A DNA stretch of 64,000 bases, taken from positions 104,564 through 168,563 of the forward strand of contig CAVPJI010000010.1 of assembly GCA_963705215.1 (NCBI GenBank). The letters are read 5' to 3'. Shown piece after piece: positions 39,255 to 52,712 of this stretch; the first letter of the stretch is position 1, and each line of letters opens with the position of its first letter. The notes beneath the pieces are model-generated. The model worked only from the letters and a program-made list of their open reading frames with translations. It was not told the DNA's origin and did no database searches. This stretch comes from an uncultured Chloroflexia bacterium (GTDB lineage: Bacteria > Chloroflexota > Limnocylindria > Limnocylindrales > CSP1-4). The position numbers and the translations under genes were made by a program.

Positions 39255-39827
39255 TCAAAGAACGCCGAGGCCCTGCAGGACGAGGATCGCGCCGAAGACC
39301 ACGAAGGCGCCGGCGGCGAAGACCTTGATGGCGCGCTCCGGCAGCCGCGAGCCGAGGAGCGCGCCGACCCCGATCGCCAGCGCGTCGGCCGCGACCATCC
39401 CGGCGGTCGAGCCGAGCCAGACACCGATCGGCTCGTTGTTGGTGGCGAGCGTGATCGTCGCCAGCATCGTCTTGTCGCCGAGCTCCGCGAGGAAGAATGC
39501 GGTCCCGATCGAGACCATCGCCCAGCGGGTGGACCGGGCGGCCCGCGACTCGTCCTTCTCGCCGAGCTGGTCACCACGGAGCGTCCAGGCGGCGAAGGCA
39601 AAGAAGGCGAGGCCGGCCGCGATGTTGATGACGTTCGTCGGGAGGGCGAGCGCGAACGCCGCGCCGAGGAGGACCGACATCGCGTGGACGATGAGCGTCG
39701 CGACGGTCACCGCGGCCAGCACCATCCAGGCCGGATAGCGGGCGGCGAAGGCAAGAGCCATGAGCTGGCTCTTGTCGCCCAGCTCGGCGAGCAGCACGAT
39801 GCCGAAGCTCAGCCAGAATGCATCCAC
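39255..39827 (-). CDS. GDT1/UPF0016 (TMEM165) family cation (Mn2+/Ca2+)/H+ transporter.
   Basis: Two E-x-G-D-K-(T/S) motifs (LAELGDKSQL and LAELGDKTML) across six TM helices. GTG start with a GGAGGA RBS. Confidence 0.7.
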   Translation of the reverse strand: MDAFWLSFGIVLLAELGDKSQLMALAFAARYPAWMVLAAVTVATLIVHAMSVLLGAAFALALPTNVINIAAGLAFFAFAAWTLRGDQLGEKDESRAARSTRWAMVSIGTAFFLAELGDKTMLATITLATNNEPIGVWLGSTAGMVAADALAIGVGALLGSRLPERAIKVFAAGAFVVFGAILVLQGLGVL

Positions 39828-40029
39828 GAAATCCTCCGGCTGGGGGGCGCCGGGCGGGGTGCGACCTCGACCCGGCACCCGGGGATGGGTGCTGGTCGAA
39901 GGTCTCGTCCACCCGCGAGGGCCCGGCGACCGGGCGCCGAGGCGCCAGCATGTCGATCAACCGGAGAGGGACTACTCCCCTTCGCGCGGAGTGTGGGGCC
40001 CGCGGGATCCGCGCGTCAAATGGAGGCCC

Positions 40030-40240
40030 TTGGCGCTGGGCGAGACACCTTGAGTTGAACGCACCACGGCGCCAACCGGACCAGCACACCGCAAGAAACG
40101 GCATGTCGAACGCGAGGAACCTGCACGGCGCGGCCAGCGGTGCCCGATTCCCGACGTCGAGCGCAACGAACCACCCGGCCCGCCGTCGGGGAGGGCCGGG
40201 CGTTGAGCTCAGCGCAAACGCGTCCGCGACCCAGGATCCC
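40030..40240. repeat. Degenerate fourth copy of the dispersed repeat (CCTTGAGTTGAACGCACC … GAGGAACCTGC … GGCGTTGAGCTCAGCGCAAACGCG) in the GDT1 upstream / marR downstream region.
   Basis: The terminal motifs and the internal block are in the same order as copies 1, A and B, but weaker. Confidence 0.3.
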
Positions 40241-40322
40241 GGCGAGGCGACGGCGGGGTCGTCGCCGCAACAGGCGCCGCCACAGGGGGCGCCCGCCGCC
40301 ATCGCCGCCCCGGCGGCCGTCG

Positions 40323-40835
40323 CTACAGCGGGCGCTGCTTGATGAGGCGGCCGCGCCGCGAGACCGCGCGGGTCGCCAGTGCGGCAACGCCCATCGCCAC
40401 GATCGCCCGCTCCGCCTGGGGGAGTGGCCGGACCACGGCGAGGAACTGGTCCGCCCGGGCCCGGTCGATGACCGCCACCAGAGCGCGTCCGCGCTCGGTG
40501 AGCCAGACCGACTTCATCCGGCGGTCGTCGGGCTCCTCCCGGCGCTCGAGGAGCCGGCGCCGGACCAGCCCGTCCACGAGCCGCGACGTCGCCGACGGGG
40601 AGCGATTCAGCGTGTCCGCGAGGTCGACGATCGTGGTGGTGCCGCCGTCCGCGACCGCGTAGAGGGCGGCCAGCTGGGTGAAGCCCAGGCGCAGCTCCCC
40701 GAGCTGGGCGGCGAACCCGATCACGAGCTCCCGCCAGAGTGCCTTGCCGAACGAGACGCGCTCGGAGAGCTCGCGCGGGTTCTGGATCCGTGACCGCGCG
40801 GCCGCCACCGGGGCGAGCAGCACGTCGTCGGCCAT
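40323..40835 (-). CDS. MarR-family transcriptional regulator, divergent from fabD.
   Basis: Winged-helix MarR core (…QLAALYAVADGGTTTIVDLADTLNRSPSATSRLVDGLVRRRLLERREEPDDRR). Alternative upstream start at 40919. Confidence 0.7.
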   Translation of the reverse strand: MADDVLLAPVAAARSRIQNPRELSERVSFGKALWRELVIGFAAQLGELRLGFTQLAALYAVADGGTTTIVDLADTLNRSPSATSRLVDGLVRRRLLERREEPDDRRMKSVWLTERGRALVAVIDRARADQFLAVVRPLPQAERAIVAMGVAALATRAVSRRGRLIKQRPL

Positions 40836-40948
40836 CGCCTCCAGGGACGCGGTCGTGACCCGGGCGGGGTGCGGCCGCCCGGGCGGCGGGCGAACAGGGC
40901 GCGGACGGGACTGGGTCACCGGACGAGGCTATCCCGTCGGCTCGAATC

Positions 40949-40964
40949 GTGCAACGTTGCACGC
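40949..40964. promoter_or_regulatory. Perfect 16-bp palindrome CGTGCAACGTTGCACG in the marR-fabD divergent intergenic region; a candidate MarR operator.
   Basis: Seen directly, and it is its own reverse complement. It lies about 140 bp upstream of the fabD ATG. Confidence 0.4.
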
Positions 40965-41104
40965 GTTCCGCGGATGACGCCACGCTCACGGGGTACCCTG
41001 CACGCGATGCCGGCGGGCACGCGCGTCCCGCTCGAGCCCGCCTCCCGGGAGGCCCCGGGCGTTGCAGCCGCACCCAGCCCGTTCGCACGAGGTACCGCCA
41101 GCAG

Positions 41105-42070
41105 ATGTCCAGCCTCGCCTTCGTCTTCCCCGGCCAGGGTTCGCAGGCCGTGGGCATGGGACGCGCGCTCGCCACCATCTCGCCCGCCGCCGCCGCCGTC
41201 TTCGCGCAGGCCGACGAGGCGCTCGGAGAGCCCCTCTCCAGGGTCGCCTGGGACGGCCCGGCCGAGGAGCTGGACCTCACGGTCAACGCCCAGCCCGCGC
41301 TGCTGGCAGCCTCGATCGCGTTCCTCCGCGCGCTCCAGGAGCGGAGGGCTGCGGCCGGCCTGGAGCTGCTCGACCCGGCCTTCGCCGCCGGCCATTCCAT
41401 GGGCCAGTACTCCGCCCTCGTGGCCGCCGGCGTGATCTCGCTCGCCGATGGGATCCGCCTCGTGCGCGAGCGCGGCCGCCTCATGCAGGCGTCGGGCGAG
41501 GGACACCCGGGCGCGATGGCCGCGATCATCGGCCTCCCCGACGAGCGCCTCGGCGACCTCGTAGCAGCCGGCGCGGCCCACGGCACGTTCGGCGTCGCGA
41601 ACCGCAACTCGCCCGGCCAGGTCGTCGTCTCCGGCTCGCGGCCCGCCGTCGAAGCCGCGGCGGCCGCCGCCAAGGGGCTGGGCGCCAAGCGCGCCGTTGT
41701 GCTCCCGGTCAGCGTCGCCGCCCACTCGCCCCTCATGGCCGACGCCGCCACGGGCATGCGGGCCGCCCTCGCGGGGGTGGTCTTCGCCAATCCCGCCGTG
41801 CCTCTCCTCGCCAACGCCGACGCGTCCCTCCTGACAACGGCCGAAGCCTGCCGCGCCGAGCTGGTCGACCACCTGACGACCGGCGTCGACTGGATCGCCG
41901 CCGTCACGGCGATGAGCGCCGCCGGCGTGACCCGCTTCGTGGAAGTGGGGCCCGGCCGCGTCCTCTCCGGCCTGATCCGCCGGATCGCGCCGGAAGCCGA
42001 GACGCTGGCCCTCGATGACCCAAACGCCCCGGGTGGCCTCGCCGACCCGGACGCCACGGCGCCGGCCTGA
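41105..42070 (+). CDS. fabD: Malonyl-CoA:ACP transacylase.
   Basis: FVFPGQGSQAVGMG…GHSMGQYSAL (active-site Ser) …AHSPLM. Confidence 0.85.
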   Translation: MSSLAFVFPGQGSQAVGMGRALATISPAAAAVFAQADEALGEPLSRVAWDGPAEELDLTVNAQPALLAASIAFLRALQERRAAAGLELLDPAFAAGHSMGQYSALVAAGVISLADGIRLVRERGRLMQASGEGHPGAMAAIIGLPDERLGDLVAAGAAHGTFGVANRNSPGQVVVSGSRPAVEAAAAAAKGLGAKRAVVLPVSVAAHSPLMADAATGMRAALAGVVFANPAVPLLANADASLLTTAEACRAELVDHLTTGVDWIAAVTAMSAAGVTRFVEVGPGRVLSGLIRRIAPEAETLALDDPNAPGGLADPDATAPA

Positions 42071-42111
42071 CGGCGCCGCGAACGACCCCCGCGACAGGAG
42101 TACCCAGCACC

Positions 42112-43374
42112 GTGCGCAAGCCCGACTTCACCCGCCGCATCGCCGTCACCGGCATGGGCCTCGTCAGCCCGATCGGGGACGAGGTCGACACCGTCTGGAG
42201 CAACCTGGCCAACGGCGTCTCCGGCCTCAAGCGGATCACCTACTGGGATCCCGAGCCGTACGACTGCAAGGTTGCGGGGGAGGTTCCTGACTTCGATCCA
42301 GCCGCCTGGATGAACTTCAAGGAGGCCCGCCGGACGGACCGCAACGTCGTCCTGGGCGTGGCGGCGTCGAAGAAGGCGCTGGCCCACTCCGGCCTCGAGG
42401 TGACCGACGCCAACCGCGACGACATCGGGGTCTACTTCGGATCGGGCGGCGGCGGCTCGAAGCTCATGATGGACAACAAGGAGATCTGGTTCGAGAAGGG
42501 GGCGCGTGCGGTCAGCCCGTTCTTCATCGCCAACATGCTCCCCGACACCGCCTCGGGCCAGATCGCGATCGAGACCGGGATCCGAGGGCCGAACATGTGC
42601 ATCGTGACGGCCTGCTCCACCGGAACCCACAACGTCGGTGAGGCGGCCGAGCTGATCCGGCGGGGCGACGTGGTCGCGGCGATCGCCGGGTCCACCGAGA
42701 CGCCGCTCCATGAGCTGATCCACATCGGCTTCTCCAACATGCGGGGCATGGGCACACCCCGCGAGGGCGACGTGGAGCAGTCGGTCTCGCGACCGTTCGA
42801 CATCTCGCGCAACGGCTTCGTCCTCGGCGAGGGTGCCGGCGCCGTCGTCCTCGAGGACCTGGAGTACGCGAAGGCACGCGGGGCGACCATCTATGCCGAG
42901 GTCGTCGGGTTCGGGTCGGCGGCCGACGCGTGGGATCTCATCCAGCCCGTGGAGAAGGGCGACGGCATCCGCCGGGCGCTGGTCGCCGCCCTCGAGCGCC
43001 ACGACGTGCGGCCCGAGTGGATCGACATGATCAACCCCCACGGGACGTCGACACCGCTGGGCGACCTCCGCGAGGCGCAGGCGTTCTGGGCGGTCTTCGG
43101 CGACCGGACACCCGAGATCAGCATCAGCGCGACCAAGTCGCTGACCGGCCACCTCATGGGCGCCGCCGGCGCGGTCGAGGCCATCTTCACGATCCTCGCC
43201 GTCCACCACCAGGCAGTTCCGGGTGTCCCGACCTTCCGAGATCCGGACCCGGAGATCAACCTCAACGTCCCGGTCGCCACCGTGCAGCGCGAGATCCGCT
43301 ACGCCATCTCCGACAATGTCGGCCTCGGCGGTCACAATGGCGCGGTCGTGTTCAAGCGCTACGAGGGCGACTGA
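42112..43374 (+). CDS. fabF: 3-oxoacyl-ACP synthase I/II (KasA-like).
   Basis: ACSTG (Cys), HGTSTPLGD (His), GHLMGAAG (His). GTG start 42 bp after fabD. Confidence 0.85.
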   Translation: MRKPDFTRRIAVTGMGLVSPIGDEVDTVWSNLANGVSGLKRITYWDPEPYDCKVAGEVPDFDPAAWMNFKEARRTDRNVVLGVAASKKALAHSGLEVTDANRDDIGVYFGSGGGGSKLMMDNKEIWFEKGARAVSPFFIANMLPDTASGQIAIETGIRGPNMCIVTACSTGTHNVGEAAELIRRGDVVAAIAGSTETPLHELIHIGFSNMRGMGTPREGDVEQSVSRPFDISRNGFVLGEGAGAVVLEDLEYAKARGATIYAEVVGFGSAADAWDLIQPVEKGDGIRRALVAALERHDVRPEWIDMINPHGTSTPLGDLREAQAFWAVFGDRTPEISISATKSLTGHLMGAAGAVEAIFTILAVHHQAVPGVPTFRDPDPEINLNVPVATVQREIRYAISDNVGLGGHNGAVVFKRYEGD

Positions 43375-43468
43375 CTCCGGAGGGCGACTGATCCGCCGGC
43401 CACTACAATCCGGCCACCTGCGACGTAACCTGCCCGGTCGGCGACGCCGACCGTCGAGCCCCGAGGAG

Positions 43469-44746
43469 ATGCCCGTGCCGCCCAGCCAGGATCCCGCCCG
43501 TCGCGCCGTGGTGACCGGCCTCGGGGCCGTCATGCCGAACGGGAACGACTTCGAGGCCTACTGGGCGAGCCTCAGGGCCGGCAGGTCGGGCGTGGCCCCG
43601 ATCACCAGCTTCGACGCCTCCGGTTTCGAGATCCGGATCGCCGCCGAGGTCAAGGGCTTCGACCCGGGCACCGGCATGGATCCCAAGATGGCCCGGCGGA
43701 TGAGCCGCTTCATCCACTTCGCGATGGCGGCCGGCAAGGAGGCGATCGCCCACGCCGGCCTCGACTTCGCCGCCATGACGCCCGAGCAGCGGGATCGGGT
43801 GGGCGTCGTCGTGAACACGGGCGGTGGCGGCATCGAGGAGATCATCGAGGGGACGCACACGGCCGACACGCGCGGTCCGCGCTTCGTGAGCCCGTTCGCG
43901 ATCCCGGCCCTGTCGGGCTCGATGGCCGCCTGCATGCTCTCGATGGAGTTCGGCCTGACCGGGCCGGTCATGGCCCAGACGGCCGCCTGCGCAACCTCGA
44001 TCATCGCCTTCCACGACGCGCTTCGCCTGATCCAGTCCGGCGAGGTGGACGTGGTGCTGACGGGCGGCAGCGAGGCGCCGATCCTCCCGGTGGGCATCGC
44101 GGCGCTCGGCAACATGGGCGCCCTCTCGAAGCGCAACGACGACCCGACGCGGGCGAGCCGGCCGTTCGACCGCGATCGCGACGGGTTCGTCCTCGGCGAG
44201 GGCGGGGGCGTCGTCGTCGTGGAATCGCTGGCCCACGCCCTCGCGCGCGGCGCGACCCCGATCGCCGAGATCCTCGGTGGAGCACTGACTGCCGACGCCT
44301 TCCACATCTCCGCCCCGGAGCCGACGGGGCGCGGCGCGACCCGGGCCATGACCATGGCCCGGGAGCACGCCGGCATCACGGCCGACGAGGTGGACTGGGT
44401 CGTGGCCCATGGGACGTCCACGCCACTCAACGACGTGACCGAGACCCGGGCGATCAAGGCGTCGTTCGGACCCGCGGCAGCGAAGGTGGCCATCTCCTCG
44501 CCGAAGTCGATGATCGGGCACCTCGTGGGCGCCGCCGGCATCGCGTCCGTGCTCGCGGCGCTCGGCGGGATCCGCGACCAGGTGATCTCGCCGACGGCCA
44601 ACCACGAGAACCCGGACCTGCCGGAATGCGACCTCGACTACGTGCCGCTGACGGCGCGGAAGGCGAAGGTCGAGACGGTCATGGTCAACGGCTTTGGCTT
44701 CGGCGGCCAGAACGCGGTCGCGATCTTCCGGCGCTACACGGGGTAG
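43469..44746 (+). CDS. Second 3-oxoacyl-ACP synthase II (KasB-like paralogue).
   Basis: ACATS / HGTSTPLND / GHLVGAAG catalytic triad, about 425 aa. Confidence 0.8.
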   Translation: MPVPPSQDPARRAVVTGLGAVMPNGNDFEAYWASLRAGRSGVAPITSFDASGFEIRIAAEVKGFDPGTGMDPKMARRMSRFIHFAMAAGKEAIAHAGLDFAAMTPEQRDRVGVVVNTGGGGIEEIIEGTHTADTRGPRFVSPFAIPALSGSMAACMLSMEFGLTGPVMAQTAACATSIIAFHDALRLIQSGEVDVVLTGGSEAPILPVGIAALGNMGALSKRNDDPTRASRPFDRDRDGFVLGEGGGVVVVESLAHALARGATPIAEILGGALTADAFHISAPEPTGRGATRAMTMAREHAGITADEVDWVVAHGTSTPLNDVTETRAIKASFGPAAAKVAISSPKSMIGHLVGAAGIASVLAALGGIRDQVISPTANHENPDLPECDLDYVPLTARKAKVETVMVNGFGFGGQNAVAIFRRYTG

Positions 44747-45358: not shown

Positions 45359-47014
45359 GTGATCGAACTGCTCCCTGTCGGCAGCACGTTCGCCGGCTAC
45401 CAGGTCGATGCCGTCCTCGCCAGGGGTGGGATGGGCGTCGTCTACCTGGCCACCGAGCTGCGGCCCCGCCGGCGCATCGCCCTCAAGCTGATCGCGCCTG
45501 CCGTGGCCGCCGACCCGGCCTACCGGGAGCGCTTCCTGCGCGAGGTCGACGCCCTTGCCGCCCTCGAGCACCCCAACGTCGTCCCGATGCATGCCGCCGG
45601 GGAGTGGGAGGGCCAGCTCTACCTGGCGATGCGGTTTCTCGACGGGCCGGACCTCGCCGAGGTCGTCCGGACCCGCGGCCCCCTGCCGCCCGCGGAGGTC
45701 ATCGTCCTCCTCGCCCCGATCGCCGATGCGCTCGACGTCGCCCACGCCCGCGGGATCGTTCACCGCGACGTCACGCCCTCGAACATCCGCCTCGACGCCC
45801 GCGGCATCCCTTACCTGACCGACTTCGGCCTCACGAAGCGGGCCGCGACCTCGGGTCCGACCGCGCTGACGCTGGGGCCGATGGGGACGCCGGCCTACAT
45901 GGCGCCCGAGCAGTTCGCGCACGACGCCGCGGCGCCGGCGCCGGATCCCGCGCTCGCGCCGCGGGCCGACGTCTACGCCCTCGGGTGCGTGCTCGTCACG
46001 CTCCTGACGGGCACGCCACCGTACCCGCGCGACACCTACGAGGCCGCGCTCTGGGCGCACGTCCACGCGGACCCACCCGCAATCTCGGAACGCGTGCCGG
46101 GTCTCCCCGCCACCCTCGATGCGGTGGTCGCCCGGGCCATCGCCAAGGATCCCGCCGCACGCTTCCCGACGCCCGGCGCCCTCGTCGCCGCCGCGCGGAC
46201 GGCACTCGCCGGAACCGGGCGGGAACCGACGGCATCTCCCACCGCCATCACCGTCGCGGCCGGCGGGCTACCCGACCCATCCAACGCGAAGCGCCGCCGG
46301 GGCCTCGCGCGCGTTGCCGGGACGGTCGGGGCCATCGCGCTCGTGGCAGTTGCCGCCGGCTTCGTCGTCGGCGCCGGGCTGCTCGTCGCCGGATCGGCGG
46401 GCGCCGGGCCCTTCGCGTCGCCGACCCCGCCGGCCGCGGCGGGAGCCCAGCCGACGCCGCGCCTGACTCCCCGGCCCACCCCGCGGCCGACGCCGACGCC
46501 ATCGCCGACTCCGTCCCCCACTCCCTCGCCCACACCGGTTCCCACGCCGCGCGTCGGTGCGCCCGAGAACGTCGCCCGGCTTCGCGCCTGGATTCCGCGC
46601 CAGGTGCGCAACGACTGCAGCTCGGCCGAGGTGACCTACGCGAACGAGCTCGCCGCGCTCGTCTGCTCGGCCAAGGACACGAAGGCGGTGCGTTACACCC
46701 TCTGGGACGACCCGGCCGCCCTCCGGTACCGATGGGACCGGTTTGTCGCGCGGGCGGTGACGACGGCTGGCGGCCGCTGCGAGGCCGGCGAGGAGGCCAC
46801 CGGACCCTGGGGTGACCAGGGCATCTTCGGGCTCTTCGGCGAGACCCGCGGCCTGATCGCCTGCAGCGTCGAGAGCGACGGCGACGCACGCGTCGACTGG
46901 ACCGTCACCGACGCCCCCATCTGGGCGACCCTCTGGCGCGACGACGAGGACATCGCCGCCGCGTACGCCACGTGGTCGGAGGCGCGCCTGAACCCGCTCC
47001 GCGAGCCGCGCTGA
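45359..47014 (+). CDS. Hanks-type Ser/Thr protein kinase with one TM helix and a Cys-containing extracellular C-terminal domain.
   Basis: ARGGMGVVY…ALKLI (Lys), [18 protein letters not shown], and [11 protein letters not shown] helix [22 protein letters not shown] Pro/Thr linker is followed by a domain of about 150 aa with 4 Cys. Confidence 0.8.
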
Positions 47015-47019
47015 GCCGG

Positions 47020-49846
47020 CTACCTGACCTCGAACACCGCGGCCGCCATCGCCGGCCCGCCCATCGCGTCGGCCCCGGCCATCCCCGCCTCGTCGGCGCC
47101 CGCCCCGTTGGCCGCCGCGGCCGTCTCCTCCGACGGCGCGCACGAGAGCGTGAACGTCCCGGGTTCGGACAGGGCGAAGCGCGCCGACTGCTCTTGGCCC
47201 GGGCGCGGGTTCAGCTCGACCTTGGGCGCGCCCGGCAGGACGCAGAGATGGAGCACGTCGGCATCGTTCGTGAACGTGACCAGGATCTGCTCGCCGGCCG
47301 CGACCTGCCAGACCGGGGCCGGCTCGCCCAGCGCGGACGCCTGCAGCTCCACCGGCACGGCGGTCGCATCGAGCCAGCGGTTGACCCCGATCACGGCCGC
47401 CGCCACACCGACCGCCAGTCCCGCGATCACGGCCAGGTACGCCGCGTCCTTCACCCGCGTCCAGGTCCGGTGCTGGGCGGCGGCGAGGACGGCCGATGGG
47501 CGCGGGTCGTAGCCGCGCAGGCGCAGCGAGTTGGAGATGACGCTCACCGACGAGAGGGCCATCGCGCCGGCCGCCATGGCCGGGTTGAGCGTGATCCCGA
47601 ACGAGCGGGTAGAGGATGCCCATGGCGATCGGGATGAGGGCGACGTTGTAGGCGAACGCCCAGAACAGGTTCTGGCGGATCACCGCCATCGTGCGGCGCG
47701 AGAGGGCGATCGCCGCGACCACGCCGCGCGGGTCACCGCCGACGAGGGTGATGTCGGACGCCTCGATGGCGACGTCGGCGCCGGTGCCGATCGCCACGCC
47801 GAGGTCGGCCGCCGCGAGGGCCGGGGCGTCGTTGATCCCGTCGCCGACCATGGCCACGACCTTGCCGCGGGCATGCAGCTCGTCGACGACCCCCGCCTTG
47901 TCGCCGGGGAGCACCTGGGCGCGGACGCGCTCGGCCGGGATCCCGACCTGCGCCGCGACCGCGAGGGCAGTGGCCCGATGGTCGCCGGTCACCAGCCACG
48001 CCTCGATGCCGGCGGCCCCGAGCGCCCCGACGGCCTCGGCGGATTCGGGCTTGACCGGGTCCGCGATCGCGATCAGGCCAAGTGGCACGCCGTCGGCGGC
48101 CACGAAGACCGGCGTCCACCCGACGGCGGCCTGCGCCTCGCCCGCTGCTGCCAGCCCGTCGCCGCCGGCGGCCGGATCACCCAGGGCGATGCCGCGCTCG
48201 GCCAGGAAGCGGGCGCTGCCGACGAGGATCGTTCGTCCCTCGACCGTCGCCTCGGCGCCGCCGCCCGCAGTCGCGACGAATGCGTCACCGCCGGGGAACG
48301 CGAGCCGGCGCTCGCGCGCCGCCAGGAGGATCGCCGAGGCCAATGGGTGCTCGGAGCCCGCCTCGACTGCCGCGGCCAGGCGGAGGAGGTCGTCCTCGGC
48401 AAGATCGCCGGCGGGAATGAGCGCGGCGACGGCCGGCTTCCCCCGCGTCAGCGTCCCGGTCTTGTCGAGGATCACCGCGGTCACGCGGTGGGCGTTCTCG
48501 AGCGCCTCCCCGCCGCGCACCAGGATCCCGGCCTCGGCGCCGCGACCCGTCCCGACCATGATCGCGGTCGGCGTGGCGAGCCCCATCGCGCAGGGGCAGG
48601 CGATGATCACGACGGTGATGAACGCGGCGAGCGCGAGGGTCAGCTTCGGCTCGGGCCCCAGGAGCCACCAGAGCGCGAAGGTGGCGGCCGCGATCCCGAG
48701 GACGATCGGGACGAAGACGCCGCTGATCTGGTCGGCCAGGCGCTGAATGGGGGCCTTGCTGCCCTGGGCGCGCTGGACCATCTCCACGATCTGGGCGAGG
48801 GCGGTGTCGCGCCCGACGCGGGTGGCCCGCATGACGAAGCTGCCGGTGGTGTTGATCGTGGCCCCGATCACCTCGTCGCCGGGGCCCTTCGTGACCGGCA
48901 TCGCCTCGCCGGTCAGCATCGCCTCGTCGACGGCGCTCGAGCCCTCGCTGACGACGCCGTCGACCGGGACCTTCTCGCCCGGGCGAACGCGCAGGAGGTC
49001 GCCCGGCTGGACCTGCTCGATGGCCACGTCGACATCCCCGTCCGCGCGGACGAGCCGGGCGGTCCTGGCCTGGAGCCCGACCAGGCGGCGGATCGCGCCG
49101 GTCGTGCGGCCCTTCGCCTGCGACTCGAGCCACTTCCCGAGGAGGATCAGGCCGATGATGATCGTGGAGGAGTCGAAGTAGGTCTCCGCGGGCAGGCCGG
49201 CCCGCATGATGACCTCCGGGTACATCGTCACGAAGACCGAGTAACCCCACGCGGCACTCGTGCCGACGGCGACGAGCGTGCTCATGTTCGTGCCGCCGTG
49301 ACGGGCGCTCTTCCAGGCGGCCTGGTAGTAGCGACGTCCGGCCCAGAACTGGATGAGGGTCGCGGGCCAGAGGACGAGCCGATTGACGTCGTGCATCGTC
49401 AGCGGGAGGGGCGCGAACATCAGGACCATGATCCCGATCGCCACGCCGATGCTCGCGGCCGACTGGATCCCGAGCTCGCGCTGCTCGCGGGAGCGGGTCC
49501 GCTCGGTCTCGTCGAGCTCGTCGTCCTTCGTCGCTGTCTCGACCGCGCCGGTCGCCCGCGCCTCGGCGGCCTCGAGCGAACCCGGGCGCACCTCGTAGCC
49601 CGCCTTCTCGATCGCCCCGACGAGCTCGCCACGCCCGACGGTCTCGGGCAGGTAGCGGATCGTGGCCACCTCGGTCGCGAGGTTGACGTTCGCCTCCACG
49701 ACGCCGTCGGTCTTGCGCAGGAACCGCTCGATCCGGTTGCTGCACGACGCGCAGGTCATCCCGACGACAGGGAACGAGACCTCGACGGGCGGCGGTGCCG
49801 ACGGCGGGGCCTGCGGCGTGGGGGTGGTCGGGACGCTGGCGCTCAT
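47020..49846 (-). pseudogene. copA: Cu+-exporting P1B-type ATPase CopA with a frame break near 47600 (between TM7 and TM8). The frame holding TM8 continues into an extra TM helix and a periplasmic beta-rich domain of about 110 aa with a Met-rich tail.
   Basis: [18 protein letters not shown] ([11 protein letters not shown]), [15 protein letters not shown] in ORF 46268..49846. The TM8 motif [20 protein letters not shown] is in the frame of ORF 47020..47577. Between them is …ILYPL(g)FGITLNP…. The tail ends …[21 protein letters not shown]. Confidence 0.75.
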
Positions 49847-50308
49847 ACTCCCCCGGAGTATAACAGGGCATCAAGGCGCCCCGACGGGCGCGCCGAGATG
49901 GTGTCGTGCGGGCGGGTCGTCGGGTTCCACGCCGAACGGGCCGTCAGGACCTTGACCGCGGGGCATGCCCGCCGGACGATGCGGGCATGACGCGCGAGAG
50001 GACGGGCGACCCAAAGGATGGCGACCAGCACGAAGGCGGTGCCCGGTTCGTCCCGGTAGCGGGGTCGTTCGGGACGGCTGCAGTCATCCCGGGACCGATC
50101 ACCGCCGGGCCGCCGCAGCCCGAGCCGGAGGAGCGCTGGACGCTCGCCCCGGGCCACCGGCCGGCCGCTCCGGGTTCCACGGTCGACGAGCCGGTCGAGG
50201 GCGTCGTCGCCAGCCCCGAACCCGTAGAGCCGTAGCCGCGCCGCGCCGCGCTCGGCAGCCGCCCGAACCGGGCGCTTCCCCCCTCGGGCGGGACGCTACA
50301 CTCCGGCG

Positions 50309-50987: not shown

Positions 50988-52712
50988 ATGACCGTCCTGC
51001 GCGCCTATCGCCAGCTGCTCGGCAACGCGCCGCTGACCAGGCTGCTCGTCGGCGAGTTCGTCTCGTCGATCGGCGACTGGCTCTCCCTCGTCGCGATCCT
51101 CATCCTCGTGTACCAGGTAACCGAGGACCCGTTCATCCTCGGCCTCGTCGGGGCCGCCCGCGTTCTCCCTTATGTCTTCCTGTCGGTGCCCGCCGGCATC
51201 GTGGCCGACCGCTTCGACCGGCGGCTCATCCTCCTCTCGACGGACGTCGCCCGCGGGATCCTCATGCTCGTCATTGCCGCGGTCGTCTTTGTCGACGGGC
51301 CGATCTGGCTGGTCATCGCCCTCGTGATCGGGGCGACCTGCTTCGCCACGTTCTTCGGGCCGGCGATCGGCGCCTACCTGCCGAACCTCGTCGAGGACGA
51401 GGAGCAGCTGGGCCCGGCCAACAGCGCCTGGGCGACGCTCGACAACCTGGCCTACATGGTCGGCCCCGCGGTCGCGGGCATCCTCATCGCGACTGGCGGT
51501 CTCGTGATCGCGTTTCTCCTCAATGCCGCCAGCTTCGCCGTGATCGCGGTCGTGCTGTGGGGGCTGCCCCGGAACGTCGCGGGCCCAGCTTCCGAGGCGG
51601 CCACGATCGCGCCCGGTGCCGCGCCGGGCGTGACACCCGGCGCGGAGACAGCGCCGACAGAGCGAGCGGCGCCTGCGTCCCTCCCTGTCCCCGCGATCGA
51701 GAAGCGCGTCCTCGTGCCGATCCTCGGGCTCGCCCTGATCGACGTCACCGGAGCTGCTGTAGGCGGCGGCCTCTCGGTGCTCACCGTGGTCATTGCCACG
51801 ACCGGGCTCGGCGGTGGCGAGGAGGCGACCGGGTTCCTCAACGCGGGAATCGGGCTCGGTGGTTTCATCGGCGCGCTCGTCGCGGGTGCCCTGGTGCTGC
51901 GCCCCAGCCTCGTCCCGCTGCTGGTTGGCGGATCGCTGGTGTACGCGATCGGCCTCGTGGCCCTCGGGTTCGCACCGGCCCTGGGAGCCGCGATCGCGGC
52001 CATCACGATCGCGGCCGCCGGCAGCCTCGTGATCGAGGTCTCGAGCATGACGGTCTTTCAGCGGGTGGTGCCGGACGCCATCCGTGGCCGAACGCTCGGG
52101 ATCATGAATACGATCTCCGTTGTCGCCCTCGCCATCGGGTCGTTCGTGGTCCCCGTCCTCGCCGACGCCGTGGGCACAGGTCCGGTCATGGCCGTGTGCG
52201 GCGTGGCCGTCGCCGTGGCCGGGCTCGTGGGCGCGCTCATGGCGGCCTCGGCCGCGCGACGCAGGGCGGGTTCCGCGGCCGACGTCCGCGTGAACCGGCT
52301 GGCCGGCCTGCCCTTGTTCGCGGGCGTGCCCGCAGCGGCCCTCGAAGCTGTGGCGGTGCGCATGGCACCGGTCCGGGTCACCGCCGGCGAGGTCGTCATC
52401 CGCGAGGGCGACGTGGCCGACCGCTTCTACCTGATCGACGAGGGCTCGTTCGCCGTGACGCGGCTGGTGGGCAGCGACCCCGCATCGGAGGCCACCGTGG
52501 TCGAGCACCTACGGACGATGGGGCCGGACGAGGTCTTCGGCGAGATTGGCCTGCTGCGCGGGATCCCGCGGACGGCAACCGTGACGGCCGCCACCGATGG
52601 CGCCCTCCTGGCCCTCGACGGGGCCGACTTCCTGGAGCTCGTGAACGCCGGCCCGCTCGTGAGGCCGCGCCTCATGGACCTGCATCGGGGGGCCCCGGGC
52701 GCAGGCTCCTGA
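50988..52712 (+). CDS. MFS transporter fused to a C-terminal cyclic-nucleotide-binding (CAP-effector) domain.
   Basis: 12 TM MFS core, then …FYLIDEGSFAVTRL…GEIGLLRGIPRTATVTA…, the cNMP-binding signature. Confidence 0.75.
   Translation: MTVLRAYRQLLGNAPLTRLLVGEFVSSIGDWLSLVAILILVYQVTEDPFILGLVGAARVLPYVFLSVPAGIVADRFDRRLILLSTDVARGILMLVIAAVVFVDGPIWLVIALVIGATCFATFFGPAIGAYLPNLVEDEEQLGPANSAWATLDNLAYMVGPAVAGILIATGGLVIAFLLNAASFAVIAVVLWGLPRNVAGPASEAATIAPGAAPGVTPGAETAPTERAAPASLPVPAIEKRVLVPILGLALIDVTGAAVGGGLSVLTVVIATTGLGGGEEATGFLNAGIGLGGFIGALVAGALVLRPSLVPLLVGGSLVYAIGLVALGFAPALGAAIAAITIAAAGSLVIEVSSMTVFQRVVPDAIRGRTLGIMNTISVVALAIGSFVVPVLADAVGTGPVMAVCGVAVAVAGLVGALMAASAARRRAGSAADVRVNRLAGLPLFAGVPAAALEAVAVRMAPVRVTAGEVVIREGDVADRFYLIDEGSFAVTRLVGSDPASEATVVEHLRTMGPDEVFGEIGLLRGIPRTATVTAATDGALLALDGADFLELVNAGPLVRPRLMDLHRGAPGAGS

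Follow-up and report, generated by a model that had tools for sequence, protein, structure and literature searches.

We analysed a 64,000-nt stretch of DNA from an uncultured soil Chloroflexia bacterium (the window; all coordinates below follow its numbering), which carries a copA gene on its minus strand (Table 1). From its start at 49846, the gene runs in one frame from the HMA domain (GMTCASCS) through the M5 motif AFAYNV to ...GILYPL, where the frame breaks; beyond the break lie helix M6, a linker, a ninth transmembrane (TM) helix and a C-terminal domain of cupredoxin fold. The Cu(I) pump as such is an ordinary one; its unusual feature is the predicted outer domain, found throughout the lineage, whose copper site has been remodelled.

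The features expected of a P1B-1 CopA, namely CPC, YN, MxxSS, DKTGT, the CxxC of the HMA domain and the eight-helix core fold, were all found, by motif search and in an AlphaFold2 (AF2) model of the 91%-identical relative P0112; the MxxSS of M6 (AMALSSVSV) lies 3′ of the frameshift. The full-length P0112 model (predicted local distance difference test score, pLDDT, 82; predicted template modelling score, pTM, 0.77) has a core that matches the CopA structures 4BBJ, 3RFU and 7R0G at 45–46% identity with E-values of about 1e-50 in Foldseek; ATP7B was also matched. These three chains have only 650–665 residues, and they align over about 660–680 of the 931 residues of the model. Judged by its motifs and by the modelled core of its relative, the gene product is a P1B-1 Cu(I)-exporting ATPase (CopA), with one N-terminal HMA domain. 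The CopA proteins of Legionella pneumophila (3RFU/4BBJ) and Archaeoglobus fulgidus (7R0G) share all the signature motifs with it, and their cores superpose; however, the solved and characterised CopAs end in the cytoplasm shortly after M6, whereas the window CopA adds the ninth helix and the domain predicted to lie outside (residues 772–941).

The break in the frame is due to a single extra G at 47602, in agreement with the preliminary description of this stretch, which had called for a frame correction upstream of the open reading frame (ORF) that it described; with the G removed, a CopA of 941 amino acids (aa) is obtained. None of the 18 related genomic loci in the alignment has the extra G, not even L018, whose identity over the aligned stretch is 97.9%; the relatives have an intact reading frame, and the window's copA does not. 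On the 3′ side of the shift, the 158-aa extension is 92% identical to P0001 and shows no further lesions. The extra G is probably an assembly error (the true sequence then being CCGCTCTTCGGG), which we favour over a very recent pseudogene. If the G is real (sequence form CCGCTCGTTCGGG), copA would be a true pseudogene in this genome, the pump would lack everything from M6 onward, and the cupredoxin ORF would not be made; we regard this as the less probable of the two, yet a serious possibility, since the insertion lies outside any homopolymer and is unique to the window, and the other frames checked within the surrounding 12 kb (FabF, kinase, Ogt and MFS) are intact. Against it, the protein downstream of the shift is undamaged and conserved, so that any inactivation would be very recent, and the sister metagenome-assembled genomes (MAGs) built from long reads have frameshifts at scattered positions of copA, typical of assembly errors. 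For example, L013, L014, L016 and L018 are all frameshifted in copA at other positions, from which we take single-base indels to be common in long-read MAG data. Programmed frameshifting was considered and rejected, because the indel is found in none of the relatives.

The ORF at 47020-47577 (minus strand) had been reported to extend past the canonical last helix and to encode an additional TM helix, and both statements are borne out. The ORF starts inside M6 and runs for 158 aa beyond the motif that follows M6; the additional helix is supported by hydropathy (it has the second-highest Kyte-Doolittle score in the whole CopA), by charge bias and by a long helix in the AF2 prediction, giving 8+1 helices. 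In the P0112 model, M6 is followed by a short helix in the linker (779–786), a long helix (789–824, pLDDT 83–92) and then a confidently predicted beta-domain. The CopA core has eight helices, with the N- and C-termini both in the cytoplasm. The beta-domain is predicted to be outside because it follows a ninth, and hence odd, helix, with a positively charged linker before this helix and a negative stretch after it (1 K+R versus 3 D+E in the 20 aa that follow); from the odd number of helices and the positive-inside rule, the domain should be on the extracytoplasmic face.

We also checked whether the extension is kept among relatives. A search with the repaired full-length CopA gave about 120 proteins of 900–950 aa, and in all 113 of them that were aligned the extension is present in a single frame, with 144–177 aa after NSLRLR; these closest full-length homologues share 60–96% identity and come from Chloroflexota, in MAGs of the Candidatus Limnocylindria type. 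The 18 related loci are likewise all from Chloroflexota MAGs (among the labels are Candidatus Limnocylindrales and “uncultured Chloroflexia” from soil bins of long-read data). Thirteen of them, 11 full-length and two partial (cut by the contig), stay in one frame all the way from the HMA domain, or from the edge of the contig, until the C-terminal domain ends; the short-read assemblies L007 and L015 are among these thirteen. In the remaining loci copA is frameshifted at differing places, typical of indel errors. Within the clade the domain is 60% identical, compared with 82–90% for the pump core, so it is the faster-evolving part. The extension is therefore neither peculiar to this genome nor an independent ORF, two of the findings that would have spoken against the preliminary description.

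An initial homologue search had returned only short proteins (E-values of 1e-85 to 1e-35 for the domain homologues), and many of the database entries for the domain are short (121–267 aa), for example those starting with MALSSVSV. Such entries could suggest that the extension is a separate small gene for a membrane-anchored cupredoxin that merely appears fused; we consider this extremely improbable. The short entries begin within helix M6 and come from contigs of 1–2 kb or from frameshifted MAGs, while the longer fragments P0001, P0010, P0012 and P0040 and all the full-length genes read through from GDGINDAP; moreover, a split of the frame within M6 is excluded, as the pump cannot do without this helix. 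The reading as an independent ORF was rejected on these grounds, as full-length relatives are continuous through M6 into the domain. The gene calls P0003, P0005, P0062, P0064, P0068, P0079, P0082, P0085 and P0087 share an internal Met start (MALSSVSV...) in M6; the likely cause is breakage of short-read contigs in M6, which is highly conserved, after which the gene caller uses the first ATG. Gene calls of this kind make the domain resemble a stand-alone “plastocyanin” in databases. A search of plasmids for CopA–cupredoxin fusions in cultured bacteria gave only six weak stand-alone cupredoxins; two were inspected, and neither adjoins copA.

The C-terminal domain had been described as cupredoxin-like from its strand pattern, and structure prediction, Foldseek and profile-profile comparison all support this assignment. 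AF2, given an alignment of 15 sequences, predicts an eight-stranded sandwich (pLDDT 78), and the top 50 Foldseek matches listed are all cupredoxin domains (probability 1.00, E-values of about 1e-4), including the CuA domain of NosZ, the Bacillus anthracis Cupredoxin_1 proteins 4HCG and 4HCF, ba3 CuA, NirK and small laccases. Scans of Pfam and NCBIfam gave nothing significant for the window domain, with only weak hints of NosZ and CoxB (E-values of about 0.03); PF13473 (Cupredoxin_1) gave no match to it even at E-values up to 10; and a sequence search of the PDB with the domain profile gave nothing significant (best E-value 0.12). The near relatives P0026, P0029 and P0024 score 15–21 bits against PF13473, for which the gathering threshold is 27 bits; this is exceeded by P0040 and P0052, two canonical sister fusions, at 34–46 bits. 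An exhaustive hidden Markov model search over 1.84 billion representatives found just 37 proteins, and these link the window-type group with the canonical one: among them are the CopA fragments P0040 and P0052, with a textbook Cupredoxin_1 extension (FHDW...C-x4-H-x4-M), and a stand-alone relative (P0036), a cupredoxin with a lipoprotein-type signal sequence, which is consistent with an exported domain. Direct comparison of the window-type domains with the canonical fused Cupredoxin_1 domains in hhalign gave a probability of 99.0% and an E-value of 4.3e-18 over 83 columns. The ancestor of the domain was a type-1 (“blue”) copper domain like those of Cupredoxin_1, a kind that sister CopAs carry in the same fused arrangement.

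Comparison with the canonical domains revealed which of the type-1 copper ligands are kept. In the hhalign alignment, His45 (domain numbering) corresponds to the first type-1 His, Cys47 to the Trp two residues later, and Cys81 to the type-1 Cys. The His...Cys...His...Met set is thus incomplete: only Cys81 is conserved, the second His is absent, and the His45 position varies within the clade (H, Y, F, L, Q or V). C47, C81 and M107 are invariant in the window's subgroup, and among 15 close homologues M107 is the only invariant Met. We infer from the aligned sequences that Met112 (M, L, I or T in relatives) occupies the axial Met position, and M107, five residues earlier, that of the second His. 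The Met-rich tail noted earlier is overstated: in the window the last 39 aa hold three Met, and Met-richness is not conserved (relatives have 0–3 Met, usually 1–3). Disorder, which had been named as a possible objection, is predicted for the Ala/Gly loop (pLDDT below 50 for residues 87–107), and the beta-domain itself is predicted to be folded. The “Met-rich tail” is better called an expanded flexible ligand loop, and the conserved chemistry, as far as the alignment indicates, is two thiols and one thioether.

Counted over the 113 homologues and the window, the domains fall into three ligand classes. The canonical H/C/H/M set is present in about 38; 63 (62 homologues and the window) have the Cys pair, no second His and a tail of 17–40 residues with 0–3 Met (usually 1–3); and about 12 have neither Cys nor His ligands, though the domain is retained. 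The extra Cys occurs together with the type-1 Cys in 63 out of 63 proteins, along with the loss of the second His and the expansion of the loop. The CopAs with the ninth helix and a beta-domain free of ligands include P0192, P0197, P0204, P0205, P0216 and P0229 (for example, AYRELVVQG...VEIGSGTGS); in P0194 and P0202 the Cys is replaced by Ser.

Table 1. Features of the copA locus, in window coordinates.
Feature	Position	Strand	Remarks
Palindrome ATACTCC-N3-GGAGTAT	49845..49861	-	Candidate CsoR-type operator overlapping the copA ATG
copA 5′ part, residues 1-748	47603..49846	-	HMA domain, helices MA-M5
HMA CASC	49742-49753	-	Motif in the copA 5′ part
CPC in M4 (IIACPCAMG), residues 417-419	48590-48598	-	P1B-1 motif present
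DKTGT phosphorylation site	48452-48466	-	Motif present
GDGINDAP	47822-47845	-	Motif present
YN of M5	47645-47650	-	P1B-1 motif present
Extra G (C on the + strand), CCGCTC[G]TTCGGG	47602..47602	-	Causes the frameshift, which lies between M5 and M6
M5-M6 loop and helix M6	47533..47601	-	Includes the MALSS metal-site motif (47548-47562)
Cytoplasmic linker, 29 aa	47446..47532	-	6 K+R versus 2 D+E
Ninth TM helix, 21 aa	47383..47445	-	Kyte-Doolittle 2.42; long helix in AF2; 70% identity within the clade
Cupredoxin-fold domain, 120 aa (NRWLD...VFEVR), residues 822-941	47023..47382	-	15 D+E versus 5 K+R; stop 47020-47022
His45-Leu46-Cys47	47242..47250	-	His45 at the type-1 His position; Cys47 replaces the Trp of canonical domains
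Cys81	47140..47142	-	Equivalent of the type-1 copper Cys, invariant
Variable Ala/Gly/acidic loop, domain residues 84-106	47065..47133	-	Includes Met101; predicted disordered; length varies across homologues
Met107-Gly-Gly-Pro-Ala-Met112	47047..47064	-	Met107 invariant, Met112 variable

Upstream, the start codon of copA is covered by a perfect 7-3-7 palindrome, ATACTCCCCCGGAGTAT (candidate operator site ATACTCCnnnGGAGTAT), which is kept in all 16 of the related loci that include the 5′ end; it occurs once in the window, against 0.03 occurrences expected. The hallmark of CsoR operators is TAC-X9-GTA with a G-tract (PMC3902906), and the palindrome, TAC TCCGGGGGA GTA, has this form. An operator over the start would mean copper-induced expression and hence a role in detoxification, so the site suggests that copA is copper-inducible and encodes a detoxification pump of the CopA1 type. 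The palindrome leaves almost no leader, and the copA mRNA may therefore be leaderless or be repressed directly at its start site. Neither a sigma-70 consensus promoter nor a terminator was found in a scan around copA. Searches by tblastn in the window and the 18 related loci gave nothing for csoR (the query was the Mycobacterium tuberculosis CsoR) and, for copZ, only CopA's own HMA domain.

The gene order FabF, membrane protein, Ser/Thr kinase, copA, Ogt and MFS is conserved among the relatives, and the locus belongs to the chromosomal core. The Ser/Thr kinase gene (45359-47014, plus strand) encodes a linker rich in Pro and Thr and a C-terminal domain that is extracellular; it runs towards copA, with the two stops 5 nt apart; the gap between the stops has no terminator-like hairpin, and the convergent pairing is kept in at least 13 related loci. 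Upstream of copA, the Ogt methyltransferase gene adjoins a gene for an MFS transporter of 574 aa (50988-52712, plus strand) with a cyclic-nucleotide-binding-like region at its C-terminus, and both are syntenic in relatives. Three further long ORFs, in the wrong frame or on the opposite strand, are located at 39571-43533 (minus strand, 1320 aa), 46268-49846 (minus strand, 1192 aa) and 47531-49990 (plus strand, 819 aa); their translations are rich in Arg, Gly and Pro, and they are by-products of the 70–79% G+C content, not genes.

Several known systems resemble parts of this arrangement. One is CupA (with the N-terminal domain of the Streptococcus pneumoniae CopA), a Cu(I) chaperone of cupredoxin fold that uses two Cys and Met (PMC7558416; PMC8475189). 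CupA and the window domain are both cupredoxins with one TM anchor, associated with CopA, and two Cys plus Met are the candidate ligands here; however, CupA is a separate cytoplasmic protein with an N-terminal anchor that feeds the pump, whereas the window domain is a C-terminal fusion predicted to be outside, and no solved CupA chain appeared among the PDB sequence matches at E-values up to 10. The hand-off of Cu(I) from CopA to CusF in E. coli embodies the same concept, direct passage to an extracytoplasmic acceptor (PMC7558416); CusF is a soluble OB-fold protein of the Cus system with His, two Met and Trp as ligands, while the presumed acceptor in the window is covalently tethered, has a cupredoxin fold and uses other ligands. 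The window domain is thus not a member of the CusF family, though it may work in a CusF-like way. CopI of Rubrivivax gelatinosus is a copper-tolerance protein of the periplasm that resembles plastocyanin, again of cupredoxin type and outside the cytoplasm, and is genetically tied to copA and copper stress (PMC7558416); it is a stand-alone soluble protein, whereas the window domain is fused. The engineered CcoI-SenC fusion has the same topology, in that a Cu(I) P1B-ATPase is linked at its C-terminus to the TM helix of an extracytoplasmic copper chaperone (PMC8475189), but it is artificial, its chaperone has a thioredoxin fold of the Sco type and its pump, of the CopA2 type, serves oxidase assembly, whereas the window fusion is natural. 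With the Pfam family Cupredoxin_1 (B. anthracis 4HCF and 4HCG) the window domain shares its fold, and its homology to the family runs through the sister fusions; it differs in falling below every Pfam threshold, in a copper site that is without its His/His part and in having an insertion of 15–35 residues in the ligand loop.

We propose that the domain is a putative tethered extracytoplasmic Cu(I) acceptor at the exit of the pump, a proposal to which we give roughly even chances. The type-1 site has been remodelled by loss of conservation at the first His, gain of a new Cys two residues further on, retention of the type-1 Cys and loss of the second His, and the ligand loop has expanded into a flexible stretch of the Gly/Ala/Asp/Met type, in which one Met is invariant. 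In the proposed mechanism, the resulting thiolate/thioether site would bind Cu(I) emerging from the exit pathway between MA, M2 and M6; tethered to the pump, the domain would serve as an exit acceptor within the same molecule, or “release chaperone”, that keeps Cu(I) off the membrane surface and hands it on, either to other proteins or to the medium. The acceptor proposal draws support from four precedents: E. coli CopA hands Cu(I) to periplasmic CusF instead of releasing it freely (PMC7558416); Cu(I) leaves P1B-ATPases by a pathway between MA, M2 and M6 (PMC9433437); CupA shows a cupredoxin fold serving as a Cu(I) chaperone; and the engineered fusion of the CcoI C-terminus to TM-anchored SenC is functional in vivo (PMC8475189). 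In the window CopA the ninth helix comes directly after M6, one of the helices that line the exit pathway. It is possible, though we would put it somewhat below even, that the whole Chloroflexota lineage has hard-wired an acceptor to CopA and that, within the lineage, a His2CysMet site was converted to a Cys2Met site for Cu(I) trafficking with a flexible Met/Asp loop.

Several observations weigh against an acceptor. Extracytoplasmic Cu(I) sites use Met and His more often than Cys, and in an exported beta-sandwich the two conserved Cys could be joined in a structural disulfide instead. The domain persists without Cys or His ligands in about 12 of the 113 homologues, which implies a role independent of metal at least in those. 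With one fused acceptor per pump, the domain cannot serve as a sink, and the proposal has to include a release step. The neighbour survey found no copper-related genes next to copA in the window or the related loci, just as tblastn found no csoR or copZ; and the window's own copA is frameshifted.

The disulfide leads to a different account of the domain, in which it no longer binds metal and C47 and C81 are bonded in an ectodomain that stabilises, oligomerises or regulates the pump (for example, by envelope redox sensing or by docking to another protein). The constant pairing of the two Cys, the loss of the type-1 histidines, the retention of the domain in relatives without any ligands and its faster evolution relative to the core all fit such a domain. 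However, a disulfide leaves unexplained the invariant Met in its MGG context and the recurrent extra Met and acidic loop residues near Cys81; Cys81 is exactly at a copper-ligand position; and both the copper pump to which the domain is fused and the copper-type operator in front of it point to copper chemistry. We therefore consider a metal-free ectodomain unlikely. Alternatively, the domain might be a copper protein with redox activity (an electron carrier, or a redox module of the Cu(I)/Cu(II) kind), which would be a client metallated by its own pump rather than an acceptor for export. The sister subgroup, which has the full type-1 set (H...C-x4-H-x4-M) and passes the Pfam thresholds of Cupredoxin_1 and Copper-bind, would suit this, and Chloroflexota do use membrane-anchored blue copper proteins (a match to Auracyanin A, at an E-value of 0.22, is not significant). 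In the window's subgroup, though, loss of the second His and lack of conservation at the first preclude a classical blue site; the neighbours are housekeeping genes, with no respiratory or redox partners among them; and a CsoR-type operator suits detoxification better than cofactor supply. A redox protein is accordingly more doubtful still than the disulfide-bonded ectodomain.

In the searchable literature we found no description of a natural C-terminal cupredoxin outside the cytoplasm on CopA or any other P-type ATPase; the main survey of P1B architectures falls outside that coverage, and a prior mention is possible. The architecture, called unusual in the preliminary description, is so among characterised CopAs; within the lineage it is not rare but spread over the whole clade, and in the sister subgroup the Cupredoxin_1 domain is already picked up by Pfam. 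As a practical consequence, more than 100 database proteins are now flagged as having a C-terminal domain that is currently unannotated. The exit of Cu(I) from P1B-ATPases is poorly resolved, with free release and hand-off to a partner both considered, and the only direct evidence on this step in the cited review concerns E. coli CopA and CusF (PMC7558416). A natural fusion of the presumed acceptor through a ninth helix amounts to a permanently docked 1:1 complex, which suits cryo-electron microscopy, cross-linking and kinetic study of the exit step; and the blue-copper, Cys2Met and ligand-less versions of the site at the same position form a natural mutagenesis series. If the acceptor is indeed hard-wired to the pump, these CopAs would provide a natural single-polypeptide model of an otherwise transient step of Cu(I) exit, and hand-off from pump to acceptor, not free release, would operate beyond Proteobacteria.

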